A DNA stretch of 38,552 nucleotides from Escherichia phage vB_EcoP_PHB20: the sequence record MN481366.1; one strand, written 5' to 3'. Under the pieces are notes generated by a model, which worked only from the letters and a program-made list of their open reading frames with translations, searched no databases and had not been told where the DNA came from. This document shows, one piece after another, positions 712 through 38,548 of the stretch (its first letter is position 1; every line of letters begins with the position of its first letter). The position numbers and the translations under genes are program-made.

Positions 712-932
712 CACCCTCCTAAAGTCACCTCCTAAAGTCACCTCCTAAAGTCACCTCCTAAAGTCACCTCCTAAAGTCACCTCCTAAAGTCACCTCCTAA
801 AGTCACCTCCTAAAGTCACCTCCTAAAGTCACCTCCTAAAGTCACCTCCTAAAGTCACCTCCTAAAGTCACCTCCTAAAGTCACCTCCTAAAGTCACCTC
901 CTAAAGTCACCTCCTAAAGTCACCTCCTAAAG
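711..932. repeat. Tandem array of 13-bp unit TCACCTCCTAAAG (one 14-bp variant then 16 perfect copies)
   Basis: Perfect copies start at 725 and recur every 13 bp to 932; first unit tcaccctcctaaag at 711-724; no spacers. Confidence 0.95.
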
Positions 933-3795: not shown

Positions 3796-6447
3796 ATGAA
3801 CACAATTAACATCGCTAAGAACGACTTCTCTGACATCGAACTGGCTGCTATCCCGTTCAACACTCTGGCTGACCATTACGGTGAGCGTTTGGCTCGCGAA
3901 CAGTTGGCCCTTGAGCATGAGTCTTACGAGATGGGTGAAGCACGCTTCTGCAAGATGTTTGAGCGTCAACTTAAAGCTGGTGAGGTTGCGGATAACGCTG
4001 CCGCTAAGCCTCTCATTACTACCCTGCTCCCTAAGATGATTGCGCGCATCAACGACTGGTTTGAGGAAGTGAAAGCTAAGCGCGGCAAGCGCCCGACAGC
4101 CTTCCAGTTCCTGCAAGAAATCAAGCCGGAAGCTGTAGCGTACATCACCATTAAGACCACTCTGGCTTGCCTAACTAGCGCAGACAATACAACCGTTCAG
4201 GCTGTAGCAAGCGCAATCGGTCGGGCCATTGAGGATGAGTCGCGCTTCGGTCGCATCCGTGACCTTGAAGCTAAGCACTTCAAGAAAAACGTTGAGGAAC
4301 AACTAAACAAGCGCGTAGGGCACGTCTACAAGAAAGCATTCATGCAGGTTGTCGAAGCTGACATGCTCTCTAAGGGTCTGATGGGTGGCGAGGCGTGGTC
4401 TTCGTGGCATAAGGAAGACTCAATTCACGTTGGGGTGCGCTGCATTGAGATGCTCATTGAGTCAACCGGAATGGTTAGCTTACATCGTCAAAACGCTGGC
4501 GTAGTGGGGCAAGACTCTGAGACTATCGAACTCGCGCCGGAATACGCTGAGGCTATCGCTACTCGCGCTGGGGCACTAGCGGGCATTTCCCCAATGTTCC
4601 AGCCTTGCGTAGTCCCTCCTAAGCCTTGGACTGGCATTACTGGTGGTGGCTATTGGGCTAACGGTCGCCGTCCTCTGGCGCTGGTACGCACTCATTTTAA
4701 GAAAGCACTGATGCGCTACGAAGATGTTTACATGCCTGAGGTGTACAAGGCGATTAACATTGCGCAAAACACCGCATGGAAAATCAACAAGAAAGTCCTA
4801 GCGGTCGCCAACGTAATCACCAAGTGGAAGCACTGCCCTGTAGAGGACATCCCAGCGATTGAGCGTGAAGAACTCCCGATGAAACCGGAAGACATCGACA
4901 CGAATCCTGAGGCACTCACCGCGTGGAAACGTGCTGCTGCCGCTGTGTACCGTAAGGACAAGGCTCGCAAGTCTCGCCGTATCAGCCTTGAGTTCATGCT
5001 TGAGCAAGCCAACAAGTTCGCTAACCATGAGGCCATCTGGTTCCCTTACAACATGGACTGGCGCGGTCGTGTTTACGCGGTGTCAATGTTCAACCCGCAA
5101 GGTAACGACATGACCAAGGGACTGCTGACGCTGGCTAAAGGTAAACCAATCGGTAAAGAGGGTTACTACTGGCTGAAAATCCACGGTGCAAACTGTGCGG
5201 GTGTCGATAAGGTTCCGTTCCCGGAGCGCATCAAGTTCATTGAGGACAACCACGAGAACATCATGGCTTGCGCTAAGTCTCCACTGGAGAACACTTGGTG
5301 GGCTGAGCAGGATTCACCATTCTGCTTCCTCGCGTTCTGCTTTGAGTACGCTGGGGTACAGCACCACGGCCTGAGCTACAACTGCTCGCTGCCTCTGGCG
5401 TTCGATGGGTCTTGCTCTGGTATTCAACACTTCTCCGCGATGCTCCGCGATGAGGTGGGTGGTCTTGCTGTTAACCTACTGCCTAGTGAAACCGTTCAGG
5501 ACATCTACGGGATTGTTGCCAAGAAAGTCAACGTGATTCTGCAAGAAGACGTAATCAACGGGACCGACAACGAAGTAGTTACCGTGACTGATGAGAACAC
5601 TGGCGAAATCTCTGAGAAAGTTAAGCTGGGTACTAAGGCACTGGCTGGTCAATGGCTGGCTTACGGTGTAACTCGTAGCGTGACTAAGCGTTCAGTCATG
5701 ACGCTGGCTTACGGGTCCAAAGAGTTCGGCTTCCGTCAACAAGTGCTGGAAGATACCATTCAGCCAGCTATCGATTCCGGCAAGGGTCTGATGTTTACTC
5801 AGCCGAATCAGGCTGCTGGGTACATGGCTAAGCTGATTTGGGAAGCTGTAAGTGTGACTGTGGTGGCTGCGGTTGAAGCGATGAACTGGCTTAAGTCTGC
5901 TGCTAAACTTCTGGCTGCTGAGGTCAAAGATAAGAAGACTGGAGAGATTCTTCGCAAGCGTTGCGCTGTGCATTGGGTGACTCCTGATGGCTTCCCTGTG
6001 TGGCAGGAATACAAGAAGCCCATCCAGACTCGCTTGAACCTGATTTTCCTCGGTCAGTTCCGTCTACAGCCTACCATTAACACAAACAAGGATAGTGAGA
6101 TTGACACACACAAACAGGAGTCCGGTATCGCTCCTAACTTTGTGCATAGCCAAGATGGTAGCCACCTGCGTAAGACTGTAGCGTGGGCGCATGAGAAGTA
6201 CGGAATCGAATCGTTTGCACTGATTCACGACTCCTTCGGGACCATTCCGGCTGACGCTGCCAACCTGTTCAAAGCTGTACGTGAAACTATGGTTGACACC
6301 TATGAGTCTTGCGATGTACTGGCTGACTTCTACGACCAGTTCGCTGACCAGTTGCACGAGTCTCAATTGGACAAAATGCCAGCACTTCCGGCTAAAGGTA
6401 ACTTGAATCTCCAAGACATCCTTAAGTCAGACTTCGCGTTTGCGTAA
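3796..6447 (+). CDS. 1: T7-type single-subunit DNA-dependent RNA polymerase (gp1)
   Basis: 883-aa ORF MNTINIAKNDFSDIELAAIPFNTLADHYGERLAREQ...; same length as and near-identical to T7 RNAP as recalled; consistent with T7-specificity promoters throughout. Confidence 0.98.
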   Translation: MNTINIAKNDFSDIELAAIPFNTLADHYGERLAREQLALEHESYEMGEARFCKMFERQLKAGEVADNAAAKPLITTLLPKMIARINDWFEEVKAKRGKRPTAFQFLQEIKPEAVAYITIKTTLACLTSADNTTVQAVASAIGRAIEDESRFGRIRDLEAKHFKKNVEEQLNKRVGHVYKKAFMQVVEADMLSKGLMGGEAWSSWHKEDSIHVGVRCIEMLIESTGMVSLHRQNAGVVGQDSETIELAPEYAEAIATRAGALAGISPMFQPCVVPPKPWTGITGGGYWANGRRPLALVRTHFKKALMRYEDVYMPEVYKAINIAQNTAWKINKKVLAVANVITKWKHCPVEDIPAIEREELPMKPEDIDTNPEALTAWKRAAAAVYRKDKARKSRRISLEFMLEQANKFANHEAIWFPYNMDWRGRVYAVSMFNPQGNDMTKGLLTLAKGKPIGKEGYYWLKIHGANCAGVDKVPFPERIKFIEDNHENIMACAKSPLENTWWAEQDSPFCFLAFCFEYAGVQHHGLSYNCSLPLAFDGSCSGIQHFSAMLRDEVGGLAVNLLPSETVQDIYGIVAKKVNVILQEDVINGTDNEVVTVTDENTGEISEKVKLGTKALAGQWLAYGVTRSVTKRSVMTLAYGSKEFGFRQQVLEDTIQPAIDSGKGLMFTQPNQAAGYMAKLIWEAVSVTVVAAVEAMNWLKSAAKLLAAEVKDKKTGEILRKRCAVHWVTPDGFPVWQEYKKPIQTRLNLIFLGQFRLQPTINTNKDSEIDTHKQESGIAPNFVHSQDGSHLRKTVAWAHEKYGIESFALIHDSFGTIPADAANLFKAVRETMVDTYESCDVLADFYDQFADQLHESQLDKMPALPAKGNLNLQDILKSDFAFA

Positions 6448-6455
6448 CGTCACAT

Positions 6456-6478
6456 TAATACGACTCACTATAGAGGGA
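6456..6478 (+). promoter_or_regulatory. T7 RNAP promoter phi1.1A, copy 1
   Basis: taatacgactcactatagaggga; +1 G at 6473. Confidence 0.85.
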
Positions 6479-6529: not shown

Positions 6530-6552
6530 TAATACGACTCACTATAGAGGGA
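6530..6552 (+). promoter_or_regulatory. T7 RNAP promoter phi1.1A, copy 2 (duplicated)
   Basis: Identical 23-mer; +1 G at 6547. Confidence 0.85.
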
Positions 6553-6603: not shown

Positions 6604-6626
6604 TAATACGACTCACTATAGGAGAA
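6604..6626 (+). promoter_or_regulatory. T7 RNAP promoter phi1.1B
   Basis: taatacgactcactataggagaa; +1 G at 6621. Confidence 0.85.
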
Positions 6627-16551: not shown

Positions 16552-17440
16552 CCTTAAACAATTCTACGAGTTACGCGAAGGTTGTGACGACAAGGGTATC
16601 CTAGTGATGGATGGTGACTGGCTGGTCTTCCAAGCGATGAGTGCTGCTGAGTTTGATGCCTCATGGGAGGAAGAGATTTGGCACCGCTGCTGTGACCACG
16701 CTAAGGCCCGTCAGATTCTTGAGGATTCCATCAAGTCCTATGAGACCCGTAAGAAGGCTTGGGTAGGTGCTCCGATTGTCCTTGCGTTCACCGATAGCGT
16801 TAACTGGCGCAAAGAACTGGTTGACCCGAACTACAAGGCTAACCGTAAGGCAACGAAGAAACCTGTAGGTTACTTTGAGTTCCTTGATGCACTATTTGAG
16901 CGAGAAGAGTTCTACTGCATCCGTGAGCCTATGCTTGAGGGTGATGACGTTATGGGAGTTATTGCTTCCAATCCGTCTGCATTCGGTGCTCGTAAGGCTG
17001 TAATCATCTCGTGCGATAAGGACTTTAAGACCATCCCTAACTGCGACTTCCTCTGGTGTACCACTGGTAACATCCTGACTCAGACCGAAGAGTCCGCTGA
17101 CTGGTGGCACCTCTTCCAGACCATCAAGGGTGACATTACCGATGGTTACTCAGGGATTGCCGGATGGGGCGATACAGCCGAGGACTTCTTGAATAACCCG
17201 TTCATAACCGAGCCTAAAACGTCTGTGCTTAAGTCTGGAAAGAACAAAGGCCAAGAGGTCACCAAGTGGGTTAAACGTGCCCCTGAGCCTCATGAGACGC
17301 TTTGGGACTGCATTAAGTCCATCGGTGCGAAGGCTGGTATGACCGAAGAGGATGTTATCAAGCAGGCACAGATGGCTCGCATCCTACGGTTCAATGAGTA
17401 CAACTTTATTGACAAGGAGATTTACCTGTGGAGGCCGTAG
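16538..17440 (+). CDS. 6: 5'-3' exonuclease (gp6)
   Basis: 300 aa MALLDLKQFYELREGCDDKGILVMDGDWLVFQ...; near-identical to T7 gp6 as recalled. Confidence 0.95.
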   Translation: MALLDLKQFYELREGCDDKGILVMDGDWLVFQAMSAAEFDASWEEEIWHRCCDHAKARQILEDSIKSYETRKKAWVGAPIVLAFTDSVNWRKELVDPNYKANRKATKKPVGYFEFLDALFEREEFYCIREPMLEGDDVMGVIASNPSAFGARKAVIISCDKDFKTIPNCDFLWCTTGNILTQTEESADWWHLFQTIKGDITDGYSGIAGWGDTAEDFLNNPFITEPKTSVLKSGKNKGQEVTKWVKRAPEPHETLWDCIKSIGAKAGMTEEDVIKQAQMARILRFNEYNFIDKEIYLWRP

Positions 17441-17541
17441 CGTATATTGGCATTGGTCTTTGTGTCCTCGGAATGTGCCTCATTGCGTGGGGCCTTTGGG
17501 ACTTAGCCCGAATAATCAAGGCGTTACAAGACTCTAAGTGA
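17428..17541 (+). CDS. 6.3: gp6.3 (37 aa, hydrophobic), GTG start
   Basis: GTG 17428 overlapping the gene 6 end; (M)EAVAYIGIGLCVLGMCLIAWGLWDLARIIKALQDSK, T7 gp6.3-like. Confidence 0.6.
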   Translation: MEAVAYIGIGLCVLGMCLIAWGLWDLARIIKALQDSK

Positions 17542-17600
17542 TAAACTCAAGGTCCCTAAATTAATACGACTCACTATAGGGAGATAGGGGCCTTTATGAT
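17541..17600 (+). promoter_or_regulatory. RNase III site R6.5 (hairpin enclosing phi6.5)
   Basis: ataaactcaaggtccctaaa ... gggagataggggcctttatgat flanks the promoter, as in T7. Confidence 0.5.
17562..17584 (+). promoter_or_regulatory. T7 RNAP promoter phi6.5
   Basis: taatacgactcactatagggaga, perfect consensus; +1 G at 17579. Confidence 0.85.
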
Positions 17601-17638
17601 TATTACTTTAAGATTTAACTCTAAGAGGAATCTTTATC

Positions 17639-17893
17639 ATGTTAACACCTATTAACCAATTACTTAAGAACCCTAACGATGTTCCAGACGTGCCTCGTGC
17701 GACTGCTGAGTATCTACAGGTTCGATTCAACTATGCGTACCTCGAAGCGTCTGGTCATATAGGACTTATGCGTGCTAATGGTTGTAGTGAGGCCCACATC
17801 TTGGGTTTCATTCAGGGCCTACAGTATGCCTCTAACGTCATTGACGAGATTGAGTTGCGCAAGGAACAACTAAGAGACGATGGGGAGGATTGA
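17639..17893 (+). CDS. 6.5: gp6.5 (84 aa)
   Basis: Track ORF after phi6.5; size and position match T7 6.5. Confidence 0.85.
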
Positions 17894-17897
17894 CACT

Positions 17898-18164
17898 ATG
17901 TGTTTCTCACCGAAAATTAAAACTCCAAAGATGGATACCAATCAGATTCGAGCCATTGAGCCAGCGCCTCTGACCCAAGAAGTGTCAAGCGTAGAGTTCG
18001 GTGGGTCTTCTGATGAGACGGATACCGAAGGCACCGAAGTGTCTGGACGCAAAGGCCTCAAGGTCGAACGTGATGATTCCGTAGCGAAGTATAAAGCCAG
18101 CGATAATGGCTCCGCTCGTATGAAATCTTCAATCCGTAAGTCCGCATTCGGAGGCAAGAAGTGA
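17898..18164 (+). CDS. 6.7: gp6.7 (88 aa, virion protein)
   Basis: Internal ATG of track ORF 17880..18164; MCFSPKIKTPKMDTNQIRAIEPAPLTQEVSSVEFGGSSDETDTEG... Confidence 0.85.
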   Translation: MCFSPKIKTPKMDTNQIRAIEPAPLTQEVSSVEFGGSSDETDTEGTEVSGRKGLKVERDDSVAKYKASDNGSARMKSSIRKSAFGGKK

Positions 18165-18565
18165 TGTCTGAGTTCACATGTGTGGAGGCCAAGAGTCGCT
18201 TCCGTGCAATCAGGTGGACTGTGGAACACCTTGGGTTGCCTAAGGGATTCGAAGGACACTTTGTGGGCTACAGCCTCTACGTGGACGAAGTAATGGACAT
18301 GTCTGGTTGCCGTGAAGAGTACATTCTGGACTCTACCGGAAAACATGTAGCGTACTTCGCGTGGTGCGTAAGCTGTGACATTCACCACAAAGGAGACATT
18401 CTGGACGTAACGTCAGTTGTCATTAATCCTGAGGCAGACTCTAAGGGCTTACAGCGATTCCTAGCGAAACGCTTTAAGTACCTTGCAGAACTCCACGATT
18501 GCGATTGGGTGTCTCGTTGTAAGCATGAAGGCGAGACGATGCGTGTATACTTTAAGGAGGTATAA
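18164..18565 (+). CDS. 7: gp7 (133 aa, host-range/virion protein)
   Basis: ATG 18164 overlapping the 6.7 stop (gTGATGt); track ORF 18161..18565. Confidence 0.8.
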   Translation: MSEFTCVEAKSRFRAIRWTVEHLGLPKGFEGHFVGYSLYVDEVMDMSGCREEYILDSTGKHVAYFAWCVSCDIHHKGDILDVTSVVINPEADSKGLQRFLAKRFKYLAELHDCDWVSRCKHEGETMRVYFKEV

Positions 18566-18591
18566 GTTATGGGTAAGAAAATCACGAAGCA

Positions 18592-18879
18592 GTGAAGAAA
18601 GTCACCAAGCCAATTACGAAAGCCGTGAAGAAAGTTACCAAGGAAGTGGCCAGTCCGATTAAACAGGTTGTAGGTGGTCTGGCTGGCGGTGCAGGTGAAG
18701 CACAGGTTGTGGAGGTCCCACAGGCTGCCACTCCTGCTGCACAGATTGGTGACATACCTGAGAAAGAGGTCTCCACCGAGGATGAAGCACAGACCGAAAG
18801 CGGACGTAAGAAAGCTCGTGCTGGCGGTAAGAAGTCCCTGAGTGTAGCTCGTAGCTCCGGTGGCGGCATCAATATTTAA
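18592..18879 (+). CDS. 7.3: gp7.3 (tail-associated), 5' end out of frame with the RBS-proximal ATG at 18569
   Basis: Body VKKVTKPITKAVKKVTKEVASPIKQVVGG...SLSVARSSGGGINI matches T7 gp7.3; ATG 18569 after aaggaggtataagtt opens MGKKITKQ then TGA at 18593-18595; body continues in the other frame from GTG 18592. Confidence 0.7.
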   Translation: MKKVTKPITKAVKKVTKEVASPIKQVVGGLAGGAGEAQVVEVPQAATPAAQIGDIPEKEVSTEDEAQTESGRKKARAGGKKSLSVARSSGGGINI

Positions 18880-18893
18880 ACAGGAGGTGACAC

Positions 18894-20504
18894 ATGGCTG
18901 AGAAGCGTACAGGTCTAGCCGAGGAAGGTGCAAAGTCCGTTTATGACCGATTGAAGAACGACCGCGCTCCTTATGAGACTCGTGCTCAAAACTGCGCTCA
19001 GTACACCATTCCGTCCCTCTTCCCTAAGGAATCCGATAACTCATCCACAGACTACACGACTCCGTGGCAAGCTGTGGGTGCTCGCGGTCTCAATAACTTG
19101 GCCTCTAAGCTCATGTTGGCGCTCTTCCCGATGCAAACGTGGATGAAGCTGACCATCTCTGAGTATGAGGCAAAACAGTTACTGAATGACCCCGATGGAC
19201 TCGCTAAGGTTGATGAGGGTCTATCGATGGTAGAGCGTATCATCATGAACTACATTGAGTCTAACAGTTACCGAGTAACTCTCTTTGAGGCTCTCAAGCA
19301 GTTAGTCGTAGCTGGTAACGTTCTTCTGTATCTACCGGAACCAGAAGGGTCAAACTACAATCCCATGAAGCTGTACCGATTGTCTTCTTATGTGGTCCAA
19401 CGAGACGCATTCGGCAACGTTCTGCAAATGGTGACTCGTGACCAGATAGCTTTTGGTGCTCTCCCTGAGGACATCCGTAAGGCTGTAGAAGGTCAAGGTG
19501 GTGAGAAGAAACCTGATGAGACCATCGACGTGTACACTCACATCTATCTGGATGAGGACAAAGGTGAATACCTCCGGTACGAAGAGGTCGAGGGCATGGA
19601 GGTCCAAGGCTCAGATGGGTCTTACCCTAAAGAGGCTTGCCCATACATCCCGATTCGCATGGTTCGACTGGATGGTGAATCCTATGGTCGTTCGTACATT
19701 GAGGAATACTTAGGCGACTTACGGTCACTTGAGAATCTCCAAGAGGCTATCGTTAAGATGTCAATGATTAGCTCTAAGGTTATCGGCTTAGTGAATCCTG
19801 CTGGTATCACCCAGCCACGCCGACTGACCAAAGCCCAGACTGGTGACTTTGTTACTGGTCGCCCAGAAGACATCTCGTTCCTCCAACTGGAGAAGCAAGC
19901 AGACTTTACGGTAGCCAAGGCTGTCAGTGACGCTATTGAGGCTCGACTTTCGTTTGCCTTTATGTTGAACTCTGCGGTTCAGCGCACAGGTGAACGTGTG
20001 ACCGCCGAAGAGATTCGGTATGTAGCTTCTGAACTTGAAGATACTTTAGGTGGTGTCTACTCAATCCTTTCTCAAGAATTACAATTGCCTCTGGTGCGAG
20101 TGCTCTTGAAGCAACTGCAAGCCACGCAACAGATTCCTGAGTTACCTAAGGAAGCCGTAGAGCCAACCATTAGTACAGGTCTGGAAGCAATTGGTCGAGG
20201 GCAAGACCTTGATAAGCTGGAACGGTGTGTCACTGCGTGGGCTGCGCTGGCTCCCATGCGCGATGACCCTGACATCAACCTTGCAATTATTAAGTTGCGC
20301 ATTGCGAACGCTATCGGTATTGACACTTCTGGTATCCTTCTTACCGAAGAACAGAAGCAACAGAAGATGGCTCAACAGGCTATGCAAATGGGTATGGATA
20401 ACGGTGCTGCTGCGCTTGGTCAAGATATGGCTGCACAGGCTACAGCTTCTCCTGAGGCTATGGCTGCTGCCGCTGATTCCGTAGGTTTACAGACGGGCAT
20501 TTAA
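18894..20504 (+). CDS. 8: Portal / head-tail connector protein (gp8)
   Basis: 536 aa, same length as T7 gp8; aggaggtgacacATG SD. Confidence 0.98.
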   Translation: MAEKRTGLAEEGAKSVYDRLKNDRAPYETRAQNCAQYTIPSLFPKESDNSSTDYTTPWQAVGARGLNNLASKLMLALFPMQTWMKLTISEYEAKQLLNDPDGLAKVDEGLSMVERIIMNYIESNSYRVTLFEALKQLVVAGNVLLYLPEPEGSNYNPMKLYRLSSYVVQRDAFGNVLQMVTRDQIAFGALPEDIRKAVEGQGGEKKPDETIDVYTHIYLDEDKGEYLRYEEVEGMEVQGSDGSYPKEACPYIPIRMVRLDGESYGRSYIEEYLGDLRSLENLQEAIVKMSMISSKVIGLVNPAGITQPRRLTKAQTGDFVTGRPEDISFLQLEKQADFTVAKAVSDAIEARLSFAFMLNSAVQRTGERVTAEEIRYVASELEDTLGGVYSILSQELQLPLVRVLLKQLQATQQIPELPKEAVEPTISTGLEAIGRGQDLDKLERCVTAWAALAPMRDDPDINLAIIKLRIANAIGIDTSGILLTEEQKQQKMAQQAMQMGMDNGAAALGQDMAAQATASPEAMAAAADSVGLQTGI

Positions 20505-21621: not shown

Positions 21622-22653
21622 ATGGCTAACATGACTGGTGGACAGCAACTGGGTACTAACCAAGGTAAAGGCGCAAGCGGTTCTGATAAACTGGCGTTGT
21701 TCTTGAAGGTATTTGGTGGTGAAGTCCTGACCGCATTCGCTCGCACCTCTGTGACCACTTCCCGCCACATGGTCCGTACCATCTCCAGTGGTAAATCCGC
21801 TCAGTTCCCTGTTCTGGGTCGTACTCAGGCAGCGTATCTGGCTCCGGGTGAGAACCTCGATGATAAACGTAAAGACATCAAACACACCGAGAAGGTAATC
21901 ACCATTGACGGTCTCCTGACGGCTGACGTTCTGATTTACGATATTGAGGACGCGATGAACCACTACGACGTTCGCTCCGAGTACACCTCTCAGTTAGGTG
22001 AATCTCTGGCGATGGCTGCTGATGGTGCGGTTCTGGCTGAGATTGCAGGCTTGTGTAACTTGTCGAGCACCTCTGATGAGAACATTGCAGGTCTAGGCTC
22101 TGCCACTGTGATTGAGACAACTCAGGCCAAGTCTGTAATCACCGACCAAGTTGCTCTGGGTAAGGAGATTATTGCAGCTCTGACCAAGGCTCGCGCTGCT
22201 CTGACCAAGAACTATGTTCCGGCTGCTGACCGTGTGTTCTACTGCAACCCTGATAGCTACTCTGCGATTCTGGCAGCACTGATGCCTAACGCGGCAAACT
22301 ACGCTGCTCTGATTGACCCTGAGAAGGGTTCTATCCGCAACGTCATGGGCTTTGAGGTTGTAGAGGTCCCACACCTCACCGCTGGCGGCGCTGGCACTAC
22401 TCGTGAGGATGCTACGGGCCAGAAGCACGCCTTCCCAGCTACTGCGAGTGGTGACGACAAGGTTGCCAAGGACAACGTTATCGGCCTGTTCATGCACCGC
22501 TCTGCGGTAGGTACTGTTAAACTGCGTGACTTGGCTCTGGAGCGTGCTCGCCGTGCTAACTTCCAAGCTGACCAGATTATCGCTAAGTACGCGATGGGTC
22601 ACGGTGGTCTGCGCCCAGAAGCTGCTGGTGCGGTGGTTTTCGCGGCGGAGTAA
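21622..22653 (+). CDS. 10A: Major capsid protein gp10A
   Basis: 343 aa MANMTGGQQLGTNQGKG...; near-identical to T7 gp10A as recalled. Confidence 0.98.
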   Translation: MANMTGGQQLGTNQGKGASGSDKLALFLKVFGGEVLTAFARTSVTTSRHMVRTISSGKSAQFPVLGRTQAAYLAPGENLDDKRKDIKHTEKVITIDGLLTADVLIYDIEDAMNHYDVRSEYTSQLGESLAMAADGAVLAEIAGLCNLSSTSDENIAGLGSATVIETTQAKSVITDQVALGKEIIAALTKARAALTKNYVPAADRVFYCNPDSYSAILAALMPNAANYAALIDPEKGSIRNVMGFEVVEVPHLTAGGAGTTREDATGQKHAFPATASGDDKVAKDNVIGLFMHRSAVGTVKLRDLALERARRANFQADQIIAKYAMGHGGLRPEAAGAVVFAAE

Positions 22654-22814
22654 TGCTGGAAGTGGCCTCAACGGTCGCTGCTAGTCCCGAAGAGGTGAGT
22701 GTTACTTCACTCCAAGAGACCTTAACGCCAGCACAGAAGGCCGCACGCACACGCGCTGCTAACAAAGCCCGAAAGGAAGCTGAGTTGGCTGCTGCTGCCG
22801 CCGCTGAGCAATAA
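21622..22814 (+). CDS. 10B: Minor capsid protein gp10B via -1 ribosomal frameshift near the 3' end of 10A
   Basis: Slippery G GTT TTC at 22635-22641; the -1 frame stays open and encodes ...AARTRAANKARKEAELAAAAAEQ to TAA 22812-22814, like the T7 10B extension. Confidence 0.6.
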
Positions 22815-23491: not shown

Positions 23492-25876
23492 ATGGCGCTC
23501 ATTAGCCAATCAATCAAGAACTTGAAGGGTGGTATCAGCCAACAGCCTGACATCCTTCGTTATCCAGACCAAGGGTCACGCCAAGTTAACGGTTGGTCTT
23601 CGGAGACCGAGGGCCTCCAAAAGCGTCCACCAATGGTTTTCATTAAGACACTTGGAGACAGAGGTGCGTTAGGTCAAGCTCCGTACATCCACCTGATTAA
23701 CCGTGATGAGAACGAACAGTATTACGCTGTGTTCACTGGTAATGGAATCCGTGTGTTTGACCTTGCTGGTAATGAGAAGCAAGTTAGGTATCCTAACGGT
23801 TCCGACTACATCAAGACCTCTAATCCACGTAACGACCTGCGAATGGTTACTGTAGCAGACTACACGTTCGTCGTTAACCGTAACGTTGTTGTACAGAAGA
23901 ACACAACGTCTGTAAACTTACCGAATTACAACCCTAAGCGAGACGGATTGATTAACGTCCGTGGTGGTCAATACGGCAGGGAACTAATTGTACACATTAA
24001 CGGTAGAGATGTTGCGAAGTATAAAATCCCAGATGGTAGTCAACCGGCACACGTAAACAATACGGATGCCCAATGGTTAGCCGAAGAGTTAGCCAAGCAA
24101 ATGCGCACTAACTTGTCTGGTTGGGCTGTAAATGTGGGGCAAGGGTTCATACATGTGGCAGCACCTAGCGGTCAACAGATTGACTCCTTCACGACTAAAG
24201 ATGGCTACGCAGACCAGTTGATTAACCCTGTGACCCACTACGCTCAGTCGTTCTCTAAGTTGCCACCTAATGCTCCTAACGGCTACATGGTGAAAGTCGT
24301 AGGGGACGCATCTAGGTCTGCCGACCAGTATTATGTTCGGTATGACGCTGAGCGGAAAGTTTGGGTTGAGACTTTGGGTTGGAACACTGAGGACCAAGTA
24401 CGATGGGAAACAATGCCACACGCTCTTGTGCGAGCCGCTGACGGTAATTTCGACTTCAAGTGGCTTGAGTGGTCTCCTAAGTCTTGTGGCGACATTGACA
24501 CCAACCCTTGGCCTTCTTTTGTTGGTTCAAGTATTAACGATGTGTTCTTCTTCCGTAACCGCTTAGGATTACTTAGTGGTGAGAACATCATATTGAGCCG
24601 TACAACCAAATACTTCAACTTCTACCCTGCGTCCGTTGCGAACCTTAGCGATGACGACCCTATAGACGTAGCTGTGAGTACCAACCGAATAGCAGTCCTT
24701 AAGTACGCCGTTCCGTTCTCAGAAGAGTTACTCATCTGGTCCGATGAAGCACAATTCGTCCTGACCGCTTCTGGCACTCTCACGTCGAAGTCGGTTGAGT
24801 TGAACCTAACGACTCAGTTTGACGTACAGGACCGAGCGAGACCTTATGGTATTGGGCGTAATGTCTACTTTGCTAGTCCGAGGTCCAGCTACACGTCCAT
24901 CCACAGGTACTACGCTGTGCAGGACGTAAGTTCCGTTAAGAACGCGGAGGACATCACAGCACACGTTCCTAACTACATCCCAAACGGTGTGTTTAGTATT
25001 TGTGGTAGTGGTACTGAAAACTTCTGTTCGGTACTATCTCAAGGGGACCCTAGCAAAATCTTCATGTACAAATTCCTGTACCTGAACGAAGAGTTAAGAC
25101 AACAGTCGTGGTCTCACTGGGACTTTGGGGAAAACGTGCAGGTTCTAGCTTGTCAGAGTATCAGCTCAGGTATGTACGTGATTCTTCGTAATGAGTTCAA
25201 TACGTTCCTAACTAAAATCGCTTTCACTAAGAACGCCATTGATTTACAAGGCGAACCTTACCGTGCCTTTATGGATATGAAGATTCGCTATACGATTCCT
25301 AGTGGAACATACAACGATGACAACTTCACTACCTCGATTCACCTACCAACAATCTATGGTGCAAACTTCGGGAGGGGCAAAATCACTATACTGGAGCCTG
25401 ACGGCAAGATAACTGTATTTGGGCAGCCTACTGCTGGGTGGAAAAGCGACCCTTGGCTGAGACTCGACGGTAACTTAGAGGGACGAATGGTATACATTGG
25501 GTTCAACATTGACTTCGTATACGAGTTCTCTAAGTTCCTCATCAAGCAAACTGCTGATGATGGGTCTACCTCCACGGAAGACATTGGGCGCTTGCAGTTA
25601 CGCCGAGCGTGGGTGAACTATGAGAACTCTGGCGCGTTCAATATTTATGTTGAGAACCAATCGTCCAACTGGAAGTACGCAATGGCTGGTGCTCGCTTAG
25701 GCTCTAACACGCTGAGGGCTGGGCGATTGAACTTAGGGACCGGACAATTCCGATTCCCTGTGGTTGGTAACGCCAAGTTCAATACCGTGTCCATCTTGTC
25801 TGATGAGACTACCCCATTGAACATCATTGGGTGTGGCTGGGAAGGTAACTACTTACGGAGAAGTTCCGGTATTTAA
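23492..25876 (+). CDS. 12: Tail tubular protein B (gp12)
   Basis: 794 aa, same length and position as T7 gp12. Confidence 0.95.
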   Translation: MALISQSIKNLKGGISQQPDILRYPDQGSRQVNGWSSETEGLQKRPPMVFIKTLGDRGALGQAPYIHLINRDENEQYYAVFTGNGIRVFDLAGNEKQVRYPNGSDYIKTSNPRNDLRMVTVADYTFVVNRNVVVQKNTTSVNLPNYNPKRDGLINVRGGQYGRELIVHINGRDVAKYKIPDGSQPAHVNNTDAQWLAEELAKQMRTNLSGWAVNVGQGFIHVAAPSGQQIDSFTTKDGYADQLINPVTHYAQSFSKLPPNAPNGYMVKVVGDASRSADQYYVRYDAERKVWVETLGWNTEDQVRWETMPHALVRAADGNFDFKWLEWSPKSCGDIDTNPWPSFVGSSINDVFFFRNRLGLLSGENIILSRTTKYFNFYPASVANLSDDDPIDVAVSTNRIAVLKYAVPFSEELLIWSDEAQFVLTASGTLTSKSVELNLTTQFDVQDRARPYGIGRNVYFASPRSSYTSIHRYYAVQDVSSVKNAEDITAHVPNYIPNGVFSICGSGTENFCSVLSQGDPSKIFMYKFLYLNEELRQQSWSHWDFGENVQVLACQSISSGMYVILRNEFNTFLTKIAFTKNAIDLQGEPYRAFMDMKIRYTIPSGTYNDDNFTTSIHLPTIYGANFGRGKITILEPDGKITVFGQPTAGWKSDPWLRLDGNLEGRMVYIGFNIDFVYEFSKFLIKQTADDGSTSTEDIGRLQLRRAWVNYENSGAFNIYVENQSSNWKYAMAGARLGSNTLRAGRLNLGTGQFRFPVVGNAKFNTVSILSDETTPLNIIGCGWEGNYLRRSSGI

Positions 25877-36306: not shown

Positions 36307-38067
36307 GTGTCTACTCAATCCAATCGTAATTTGCTCGTTGTGGCGCAACTAAAGGGCGACTTCGTGGCGTTCCTGTTCGTCTTATGGAAGGCGTTAAACC
36401 TTCCGGTGCCCACTAAGTGTCAGATTGACATGGCTAAGGTGCTGGAGAATGGAGACAACAAGAAGTTCATCCTACAGGCTTTCCGTGGTATCGGTAAGTC
36501 GTTCATCACATGTGCGTTCGTTGTGTGGTCCTTATGGAGAGACCCACAGTTGAAGATACTCATTGTATCAGCCTCTAAAGAACGTGCAGACGCTAACTCC
36601 ATCTTCATTAAGAACATCATTGACCTGCTCCCATTCCTTGCTGAGCTAAAGCCAAGACCCGGACAGCGCGACTCTGTAATCAGCTTTGATGTTGGTCCTG
36701 CCAGTCCTGACCACTCGCCTAGTGTGAAATCAGTAGGTATCACTGGTCAGTTAACTGGTAGTCGTGCTGATATTATCATTGCGGATGACGTTGAGATTCC
36801 GTCTAACAGTGCTACTATGGGTGCCCGTGAGAAGCTATGGACTCTGGTTCAGGAGTTCGCTGCGTTACTTAAGCCGCTGCCTACTTCTCGTGTTATCTAC
36901 CTTGGTACACCTCAAACTGAGATGACTCTCTATAAGGAACTGGAGGATAACCGTGGGTACACCACTATCATCTGGCCTGCTCTGTACCCAAGGACTCGTG
37001 AGGAGAATCTTTACTATGCCCAACGTCTTGCCCCAATGCTCCGTGCGGAGTACGAGGAGAATCCTGAGGCTCTGGCTGGTACTCCTACAGACCCTGTTCG
37101 ATTCGACAGAGATGACCTACGTGAGCGTGAGTTGGAATACGGTAAGGCTGGCTTTACGCTACAGTTTATGCTTAACCCGAACCTGAGTGATGCCGAGAAG
37201 TACCCTCTGAGGCTCCGTGACGCTATCGTAGCGGCCTTAGACTTAGAGAAGGCACCGATGCATTACCAGTGGCTTCCGAACCGTCAGAACATCATTGAGG
37301 ACCTTCCTAACGTGGGCCTTAAGGGTGATGACCTGCACACCTACCACGAGTGCTCGAATAACTCTGGTCAGTATCAACAGAAGATTCTGGTCATTGACCC
37401 TAGTGGTCGCGGTAAGGACGAAACAGGTTACGCGGTGCTGTACACCCTCAATGGTTACATCTACCTAATGGAAGCTGGAGGTTTCCGTGACGGTTACTCC
37501 GATAAGACCCTTGAGTTGCTCGCTAAGAAAGCTAAGCAATGGGGAGTCCAGACGGTCGTCTACGAGAGTAACTTCGGTGATGGTATGTTTGGTAAGGTAT
37601 TCAGTCCTATCCTTCTTAAACACCACAACTGTGCTATGGAAGAGATTCGTGCTCGTGGTATGAAGGAGATGCGTATTTGTGATACCCTTGAGCCAGTCAT
37701 GCAGACTCACCGCCTTGTCATTCGTGATGAGGTCATTAGGGCAGACTACCAGTCCGCTCGTGACGTAGACGGTAAGCATGACGTTAAGTATTCACTGTTC
37801 TACCAGATGACCCGCATCACTCGTGAGAAAGGTGCTCTGGCTCATGATGACCGCTTGGATGCTCTTGCGTTAGGCGTTGAGTATCTCCGTGAGTCCATGC
37901 AGTTGGATTCCGTTAAGGTCGAGGGTGAAGTGCTTGCTGACTTCCTTGAGGAGCACATGATGCGTCCTACGGTTGCCGCTACGCATATCATTGAGATGTC
38001 TGTAGGAGGAGTTGATGTGTACTCTGAGGACGATGAGGGTTACGGTACGTCTTTCATTGAGTGGTGA
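36307..38067 (+). CDS. 19: Terminase large subunit (gp19)
   Basis: 586 aa, GTG start after taaggaggtaat; Walker A-like AFRGIGKS; near-identical to T7 gp19 as recalled. Confidence 0.98.
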
Positions 38068-38104
38068 TTTATGAGGCCAAGGAAGGCCACTTTAAGGAGG
38101 TAAT

Positions 38105-38548
38105 ATGATAAACAAGAAGAAGTATGTTGTTGATAAGGAGACTGGTTGCTGGAACTTTAAGGGATGTAAGACGAAGACTGGTTATGGTCGTATCCGTGTG
38201 AATGGTGTCCATTGGATGGCCCACAGGTATTCCCTGAGTTGTCATCTAGGCAGACCGATAGCTGACGGAATGGTTGTGATGCACCTGTGTGATAACCCTT
38301 CGTGTGTTAACCCTGAGCACCTTAAGGAAGGGACCCAGAAGGAAAACATAGAGGACTGCATCTCAAAGGGTCGCGCAACTAAGGCCACAGGTAAACGTGA
38401 TGCGTCGAAGAGAGACCCTAGCGAGGAACGTAAGGCTATAGTGATTCGTAGATACCATAAAGGCTGGAACGCAACGTCCATAGCGAGATACCATAAGCTC
38501 TCTGTGGCGTGGGTCAAGAGGGTCATTGAGGAGTACCTAAGTGATTGA
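38105..38548 (+). CDS. HNH-family homing endonuclease-like protein (147 aa), not at this position in T7
   Basis: Motif ETGCWNFKG..GYGRIRVNGVHWMAHR...VVMHLCDNPSCVNPEHLKEGTQKEN typical of phage HNH endonucleases, plus C-terminal HTH-like AIVIRRYHKGWNATSIARYHKLSVAWVKRV; SD taaggaggtaatATG; rare AGA/AGG/ATA/CTA codons. Confidence 0.85.
   Translation: MINKKKYVVDKETGCWNFKGCKTKTGYGRIRVNGVHWMAHRYSLSCHLGRPIADGMVVMHLCDNPSCVNPEHLKEGTQKENIEDCISKGRATKATGKRDASKRDPSEERKAIVIRRYHKGWNATSIARYHKLSVAWVKRVIEEYLSD

Follow-up and report, generated by a model that had tools for sequence, protein, structure and literature searches.

Gene 7.3 of bacteriophage T7 is needed for plaque formation on Escherichia coli B and K-12 (PMC3276506) and is considered essential in BL21 (PMC12798971). 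T7 particles devoid of gp7.3 carry their fibers and do not adsorb (PMC3276506; PMC11784390, citing Kemp et al. 2005). Six copies of the protein are anchored between the subunits of the gp12 nozzle, with residues K84 and K85 contacting the DNA end; only residues 84-98 were resolved by cryo-EM, and residues 1-83 are disordered and basic (PMC11784390). The protein is needed solely during assembly, not in the mature virion (PMC11784390). It is also a frequent target of mutation in evolving T7, where in-frame deletions appear readily and are tolerated (PMC12798971).

A ribosome that has terminated at an internal stop codon can begin again at an in-frame start codon close by (PMC6728339, PMC12548453). 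Reinitiation has been documented in E. coli where the two codons overlap, a -4 overlap being the standard bacterial geometry, and a Shine-Dalgarno (SD) sequence usually helps but is not always needed (PMC6728339, PMC12548453). When the SD was removed from five E. coli gene pairs, reinitiation fell by 60-90% in three and was abolished in one; the fifth, which was uncoupled in that construct, showed no effect (PMC6728339).

We analyzed the gene 7.3 locus of Escherichia phage vB_EcoP_PHB20 in record MN481366.1, the whole stretch of 38,552 nucleotides being called the window hereafter. The locus and its neighborhood comprise the following features.

17562..17584, plus strand: T7-type class III promoter, perfect 23-nt consensus (0 mismatches to TAATACGACTCACTATAGGGAGA; 0 expected by chance)
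18164..18565, plus strand: gene 7 homologue, to which the CDS at 17309-17710 of phage IME390, annotated 'host range and adsorption protein', maps
18554..18560, plus strand: SD sequence AAGGAGG of gene 7.3, identical in close relatives
18569..18595, plus strand: remnant ORF of 8 codons (MGKKITKQ and TGA), the original gene 7.3 start, out of frame as a result of the missing base
18592..18879, plus strand: remainder of gene 7.3, 95 codons and a stop, corresponding to residues 9-103 of the intact protein
18894..20504, plus strand: gene 8 (portal, head-tail connector), the downstream neighbor, which confirms the gene order

The six-frame ORF list contains a single long ORF for the body of gene 7.3, of 95 amino acids (MKKVTKPITKAVKKVTKEVASP...SSGGGINI), with a GTG start and in the -1 frame relative to the ATG at 18569. 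This ORF matches Pfam family PF11653, VirionAssem_T7 ('Bacteriophage T7 virion assembly protein'), over profile positions 6-99 of 99 (E = 4.8e-42; 142.9 bits against a gathering cut-off of 25), and residues 6-99 of PDB entry 9JYZ, 'Protein 7.3' (E = 5e-37). The PHROG assignment is phrog_1320 ('host range and adsorption protein'). Over the last 26 residues, which include the conserved nozzle-binding segment (T7 residues 84-98, with K84 and K85), the sequence is the same as in T7 gp7.3. The position is also that of gene 7.3, between gene 7 and the portal gene 8 and 3' of a class III promoter. The gene 7 homologue ends 3 nt upstream of the gene 7.3 ATG, and the ribosome-binding site of gene 7.3 lies inside the 3' end of gene 7. 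The locus thus shares with T7 the protein family, the place between genes 7 and 8, the ribosome-binding site and the C-terminal 26 residues. It differs in that the canonical ATG is out of frame with the gene body and the long ORF encodes only profile positions 6-99. The initial annotation had called the protein non-essential, a description at odds with the requirement for gene 7.3 in T7 plaques and infective particles (PMC11784390, PMC3276506, PMC12798971).

The promoter at 17562..17584 is the nearest phage promoter upstream of gene 7.3 and, to judge by the order of genes in T7, is probably responsible for the transcription of genes 6.5 to 7.3. Perfect 23-nt matches to the T7 class III consensus occur at five sites of the window (17562, 20502, 21541, 25907 and 33198), which argues that the phage RNA polymerase almost certainly has the promoter specificity of the T7 enzyme. 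Three further T7-type promoter-like sites (6456-6478, 6530-6552 and 6604-6626) follow the RNA polymerase gene at a spacing of 74 nt, in a tandem 74-nt repeat that shows as off-diagonal matches in the genome comparison. In T7, two promoters, phi1.1A and phi1.1B, follow the RNA polymerase gene.

The canonical start codon of gene 7.3 is located 8 nt downstream of AAGGAGG, and its predicted anti-SD pairing of -13.4 kcal/mol places it in the strongest class in this genome. The frame that it opens reads ATG GGT AAG AAA ATC ACG AAG CAG TGA, i.e., MGKKITKQ followed by a stop at 18593-18595. Hence no continuous ORF runs through the gene from the canonical ATG and SD, the ATG frame ending after eight codons. 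In the frame of the gene body, no other ATG, GTG or TTG is found between the TAA at 18574-18576 and position 18592. All coordinates given previously for the ATG with its strong SD, for MGKKITKQ and for the TGA were reproduced, and the description of the gene body as lying in another frame from a GTG at 18592 devoid of an SD also held, with a predicted pairing of -2.8 kcal/mol at that codon.

A megablast search of positions 18400-18900 against 50,697 phage records returned a match of at least 99% identity only to Enterobacteria phage vB_EcoP_IME390 (MH779619 / NC_048082), and that match is one base longer than the query. The window as a whole is 99.98% identical to IME390. Positions 868-38552 align with IME390 13-37698 over 37,686 columns with five mismatches and a single one-base gap, and positions 1-698 correspond to IME390 37699-38396 with no differences, indicating the same genome with another cut point. 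The sole gap in the long alignment is a missing G at codon 8 of gene 7.3, which turns AAGGCAG into AAGCAG. IME390 thus reads ACG AAG GCA GTG AAG (T K A V K) where the window reads ACG AAG CAG TGA. That the region is one nucleotide short of T7 (AAGAAGGCCGTGAAG) had been noticed before and is correct; the difference is sharper against the near-identical IME390 (ACGAAGGCAGTGAAG, compared with ACGAAGCAGTGAAG in the window). Three features define the site.

18580..18642, plus strand: imperfect 33-nt tandem duplication encoding ITKAVKKVTK(P/E) twice, with the missing base in copy 1
18589..18590, plus strand: deletion site, where relatives have GG then C and the window G then C
18592..18595, plus strand: GTGA, in which the Val9 GTG of gene 7.3 overlaps the new TGA, the candidate restart site

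Apart from that base, the DNA of the gene is the same as in IME390, whose GG yields one continuous ORF of 103 codons (YP_009814096.1, NC_048082 17714-18025) in place of the split frames produced by the single G of the window. The intact gp7.3 of this lineage has 103 amino acids, with a duplicated ITKAVKKVTK unit, compared with 99 in T7.

The extra base is present in the outgroups 3A_8767, 64795_ec1 and EG1 as well as in T7, which identifies the deletion as the derived state on the branch of the window. The frameshift was common to none of about 100 relatives checked. In all 34 relatives from IMG/VR, gene 7.3 is continuous behind an ATG and a strong SD; nearly all of the proteins start with MG, and almost all keep the MGKK motif. 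For every full-length GenBank match listed, the span minus the query length equals 1 modulo 3 (31 distinct spans in one megablast listing and a further spread that included T7 isolates and evolved T7 lines), as expected if all relatives are in frame and the window alone is one base short. Gene conversion between the two copies of the 33-nt repeat was rejected as the cause, because the second copy has 12 bases where 12 are expected in the first, and it cannot explain a loss to the 11 found in the window. Two papers naming IME390 (PMC11433858, PMC7598189) do not describe the variant with the missing base.

The initial annotation had offered an inactivating event, a recoding event or a sequencing error. 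A genuine mutation and a sequencing error are indeed the main alternatives, but inactivation is not implied: loss of function need not follow, because the new stop overlaps the in-frame Val9 GTG. This overlap is what the present analysis adds to the earlier account. The reading that we favor, with confidence not quite reaching even, is that the deletion is real, the gene damaged rather than dead, and gp7.3 supplied by a candidate restart at GTG 18592. An otherwise near-IME390 phage would have lost one G of the GG pair from codon 8 of gene 7.3. Ribosomes would load at the unchanged, strong ribosome-binding site, translate MGKKITKQ and terminate at the TGA at 18593-18595; as this TGA shares bases with the GTG of Val9, some of them could reinitiate there with a -4 overlap. 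The product, probably made in lower amounts, would be a 95-residue gp7.3 starting with (f)MKKVTKPITKAVKKVTKE and lacking residues 1-8 (8 of 103), with the C-terminal segment complete and the basic N-terminal repeat largely retained. Three steps of this reading we infer: a deletion in the phage DNA, a restart, and a working short protein.

The configuration has much in common with described termination-reinitiation systems. The GTGA at 18592-18595 provides the 4-nt stop/start overlap, the upstream ORF would be heavily translated, and the situation is that of the experiments in which ribosomes arriving at an internal stop reinitiated at a nearby in-frame start (PMC6728339). According to the annotation, six native gene pairs of this genome type have a one-base stop/start overlap. 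The window differs from those systems in that the restart codon is a GTG rather than an ATG and has essentially no SD motif before it, as judged from predicted anti-SD pairing: the median over 45 annotated IME390 starts is -9.5 kcal/mol, and only 1 of the 45 is weaker than GTG 18592. It also differs in that its GTGA is an accident of the deletion, not a conserved gene junction. A strong upstream SD combined with virtually none at the GTG makes a restart plausible and probably inefficient. The stricter proposition, that a viable T7-like phage makes the essential gp7.3 solely by termination-reinitiation at an accidental, SD-less GTGA, we regard as possible and somewhat less than an even prospect.

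A shortened, 95-residue gp7.3 that works is plausible. The predicted restart product aligns to residues 6-99 of T7 gp7.3 and keeps all of the C-terminus that is ordered in T7, at the cost of the conserved MGKK start. The loss of this conserved MG/MGKK N-terminus argues against the restart reading. Natural gp7.3 proteins of IMG/VR relatives range from 79 to 122 amino acids and vary in the number of KxVKKVTK units, and gene 7.3 of T7 record OL964749 is 12 nt shorter. The 79-residue homologue, from a 37,555-nt contig, begins MGKVVKKVVKEVTRPVKQ; the predicted restart product is longer, and less of the basic repeat is missing from it. Were the deletion real, the window would represent a small natural experiment, showing that gp7.3 tolerates the loss of its first eight residues and that an SD-less restart can yield a low-copy virion assembly protein in sufficient amounts. 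The conserved MGKK N-terminus would then be dispensable.

The sequence GTGAAG (Val-Lys) occurs at codons 9 and 20 of the intact gene (18592-18597 and 18625-18630 in the window), the recurrence being due to the 33-nt tandem duplication. Any loss of a single base within codons 2-19 of that gene would lead to a stop on a GTGA with an in-frame GTG. If the restart occurs, the repeated Val-Lys codons would therefore make the 5' end of the gene robust to frameshifts. Such robustness seems to be incidental to the repeat and not a matter of design.

The strongest competing explanation is a sequencing or assembly error, the phage having an intact, IME390-identical gene 7.3 from which one G was dropped in the consensus; we give it a substantial weight that stays below one half. 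The requirement for gp7.3 in T7 infectivity (PMC11784390, PMC3276506) and the integrity of the gene in every relative examined both speak for it, and what differs is the length of a short run of G. A second difference of one base, CCC instead of CC at about 714-716, lies beside an array of 13-nt repeats, so that small indel errors may be present in one of the two assemblies, that of the window or that of IME390. The resolution of 16.8 copies of that array suggests long, indel-prone reads or assembly trouble, and the arbitrary start of the window (IME390 position 37699) looks like uncurated assembler output. Neither allele has independent confirmation: a pattern covering both the deleted and the intact form found no match in IMG/VR, JGI metagenomes or GTDB genomes, and megablast against complete E. 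coli assemblies found no copy of either. Similarly, an exact-sequence look-up of the 95-residue product, with V or M as its first residue, gave no match, as did one with the gp17 of the window.

Other observations do not fit an error. Consensus errors should appear as indels spread over the genome and at long homopolymers, yet there is one coding indel in 37.7 kb. Indel-prone platforms fail first at long homopolymer runs, and all 13 runs of at least 5 nt are unchanged relative to IME390, with no ambiguous bases. The GG affected is a two-base run, of which there are 6,094, and no hot spot for errors. Moreover, the deletion falls within the 24-nt stretch of gene 7.3 where it would be least harmful, and a random error has no reason to be there. 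The window also has derived substitutions of its own, a C at 961 and, within the RNA polymerase gene, a synonymous G at 5439, indicating a separate lineage with real mutations. We lean, only slightly, toward a real deletion over an error.

An improbable explanation is a real deletion that abolishes useful gp7.3 altogether (a true null), the loss being either tolerated or, in defective genomes, complemented in a mixed lysate. A restart at a GTG with essentially no SD could be negligible, the mature T7 virion does not need gp7.3 even though assembly does (PMC11784390), and the protein is often mutated in evolving T7 (PMC12798971). This is countered by the need for gene 7.3 in T7 plaques on E. 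coli B and K-12 (PMC3276506) and by the preservation of the gene in all relatives, from Teseptimavirus to more distant genera. Further decay would also be expected after a true loss, whereas the downstream 95 codons are identical to those of IME390.

Programmed recoding, in which ribosomes would shift by -1 in the first eight codons or the RNA polymerase would slip to yield full-length gp7.3, is largely refuted and very unlikely: T7-like phages do use -1 frameshifting elsewhere (gene 10A/10B) and the region is A-rich (AAGAAAA), but the eight codons (ATG GGT AAG AAA ATC ACG AAG CAG), and with them the zero frame at 18577-18592, are free of any X XXY YYZ heptamer, no run of A exceeds four bases, which is too short for transcriptional slippage, and every relative examined has a single frame in place of the two-frame layout. 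No stable RNA structure was predicted in the 120 nt around the site (-17 kcal/mol, z = -0.15; 78 of 200 shuffled sequences fold as well or better), and no Rfam family matched the site at E <= 1. With no heptamer, structure, Rfam match or conservation, both programmed frameshifting and transcriptional slippage were rejected, and the recoding option of the initial annotation found no support. The T7 gene 10A/10B frameshift, in the same phage group, also joins two frames in one gene; it does so at a conserved slippery sequence, G GTT TTC, in contrast to the gene 7.3 site, which has neither slippery sequence nor structure nor conservation. The window has a genuine T7-type 10A/10B site of this kind, G GTT TTC at 22635-22641, where gene 10A ends, which illustrates how such a site appears in this genome; the 10B extension ORF (22653-22814) that follows is annotated on its own in IME390, as 'head protein'.

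The lesion is therefore an ordinary one-base deletion or a miscall. Both the gene and the type of phage are known, and there is no special recoding signal. It has little import beyond this genome and opens no new question. In annotations, gene 7.3 should either carry a frameshift flag or start at GTG 18592.

Of the four coding substitutions that separate the window from IME390, three are non-synonymous, all of them in tail genes, at window positions 23546 (gp12 codon 19) and 35196 and 35201 (gp17 codons 642-643). The gp12 residue P19 of the window is present in 80 of 80 relatives, IME390 having P19S. In gp17, E642/K643 of the window match E/R of EG1, and IME390 carries E642K and K643N, in adjacent codons near the fiber tip. 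These outgroup states indicate that the tail substitutions arose on the IME390 branch, and the frameshift is thus not part of a same-branch set of tail changes. We had considered the window as an adsorption-adapted derivative with the frameshift as part of a host-range adaptation, and rejected this because polarizing with the outgroups shows the window to be ancestral at these positions. IME390 was grown on BL21, and its tail substitutions may reflect adaptation of the reference stock to that host.

A perfect 13-nt tandem array (CCTCCTAAAGTCA) has 16.8 copies at window 715-932 and 5.0 copies at the corresponding place in IME390 (13-77), which accounts for nearly all of the 156-nt difference in length between the two genomes. 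The array adjoins the start and end of the IME390 record and hence is probably in or near the terminal-repeat region. At its left edge, in non-coding DNA, window 712-718 reads CACCCTCC where IME390 has CACCTCC, a difference hidden from BLAST because the alignment starts inside the array. At window 698/699, the last base of IME390 is directly joined to its first, and the window has the same collapsed, circular-looking assembly as IME390 in rotated form. The window begins 5 nt after the stop codon of an HNH endonuclease gene, not at a genome end.
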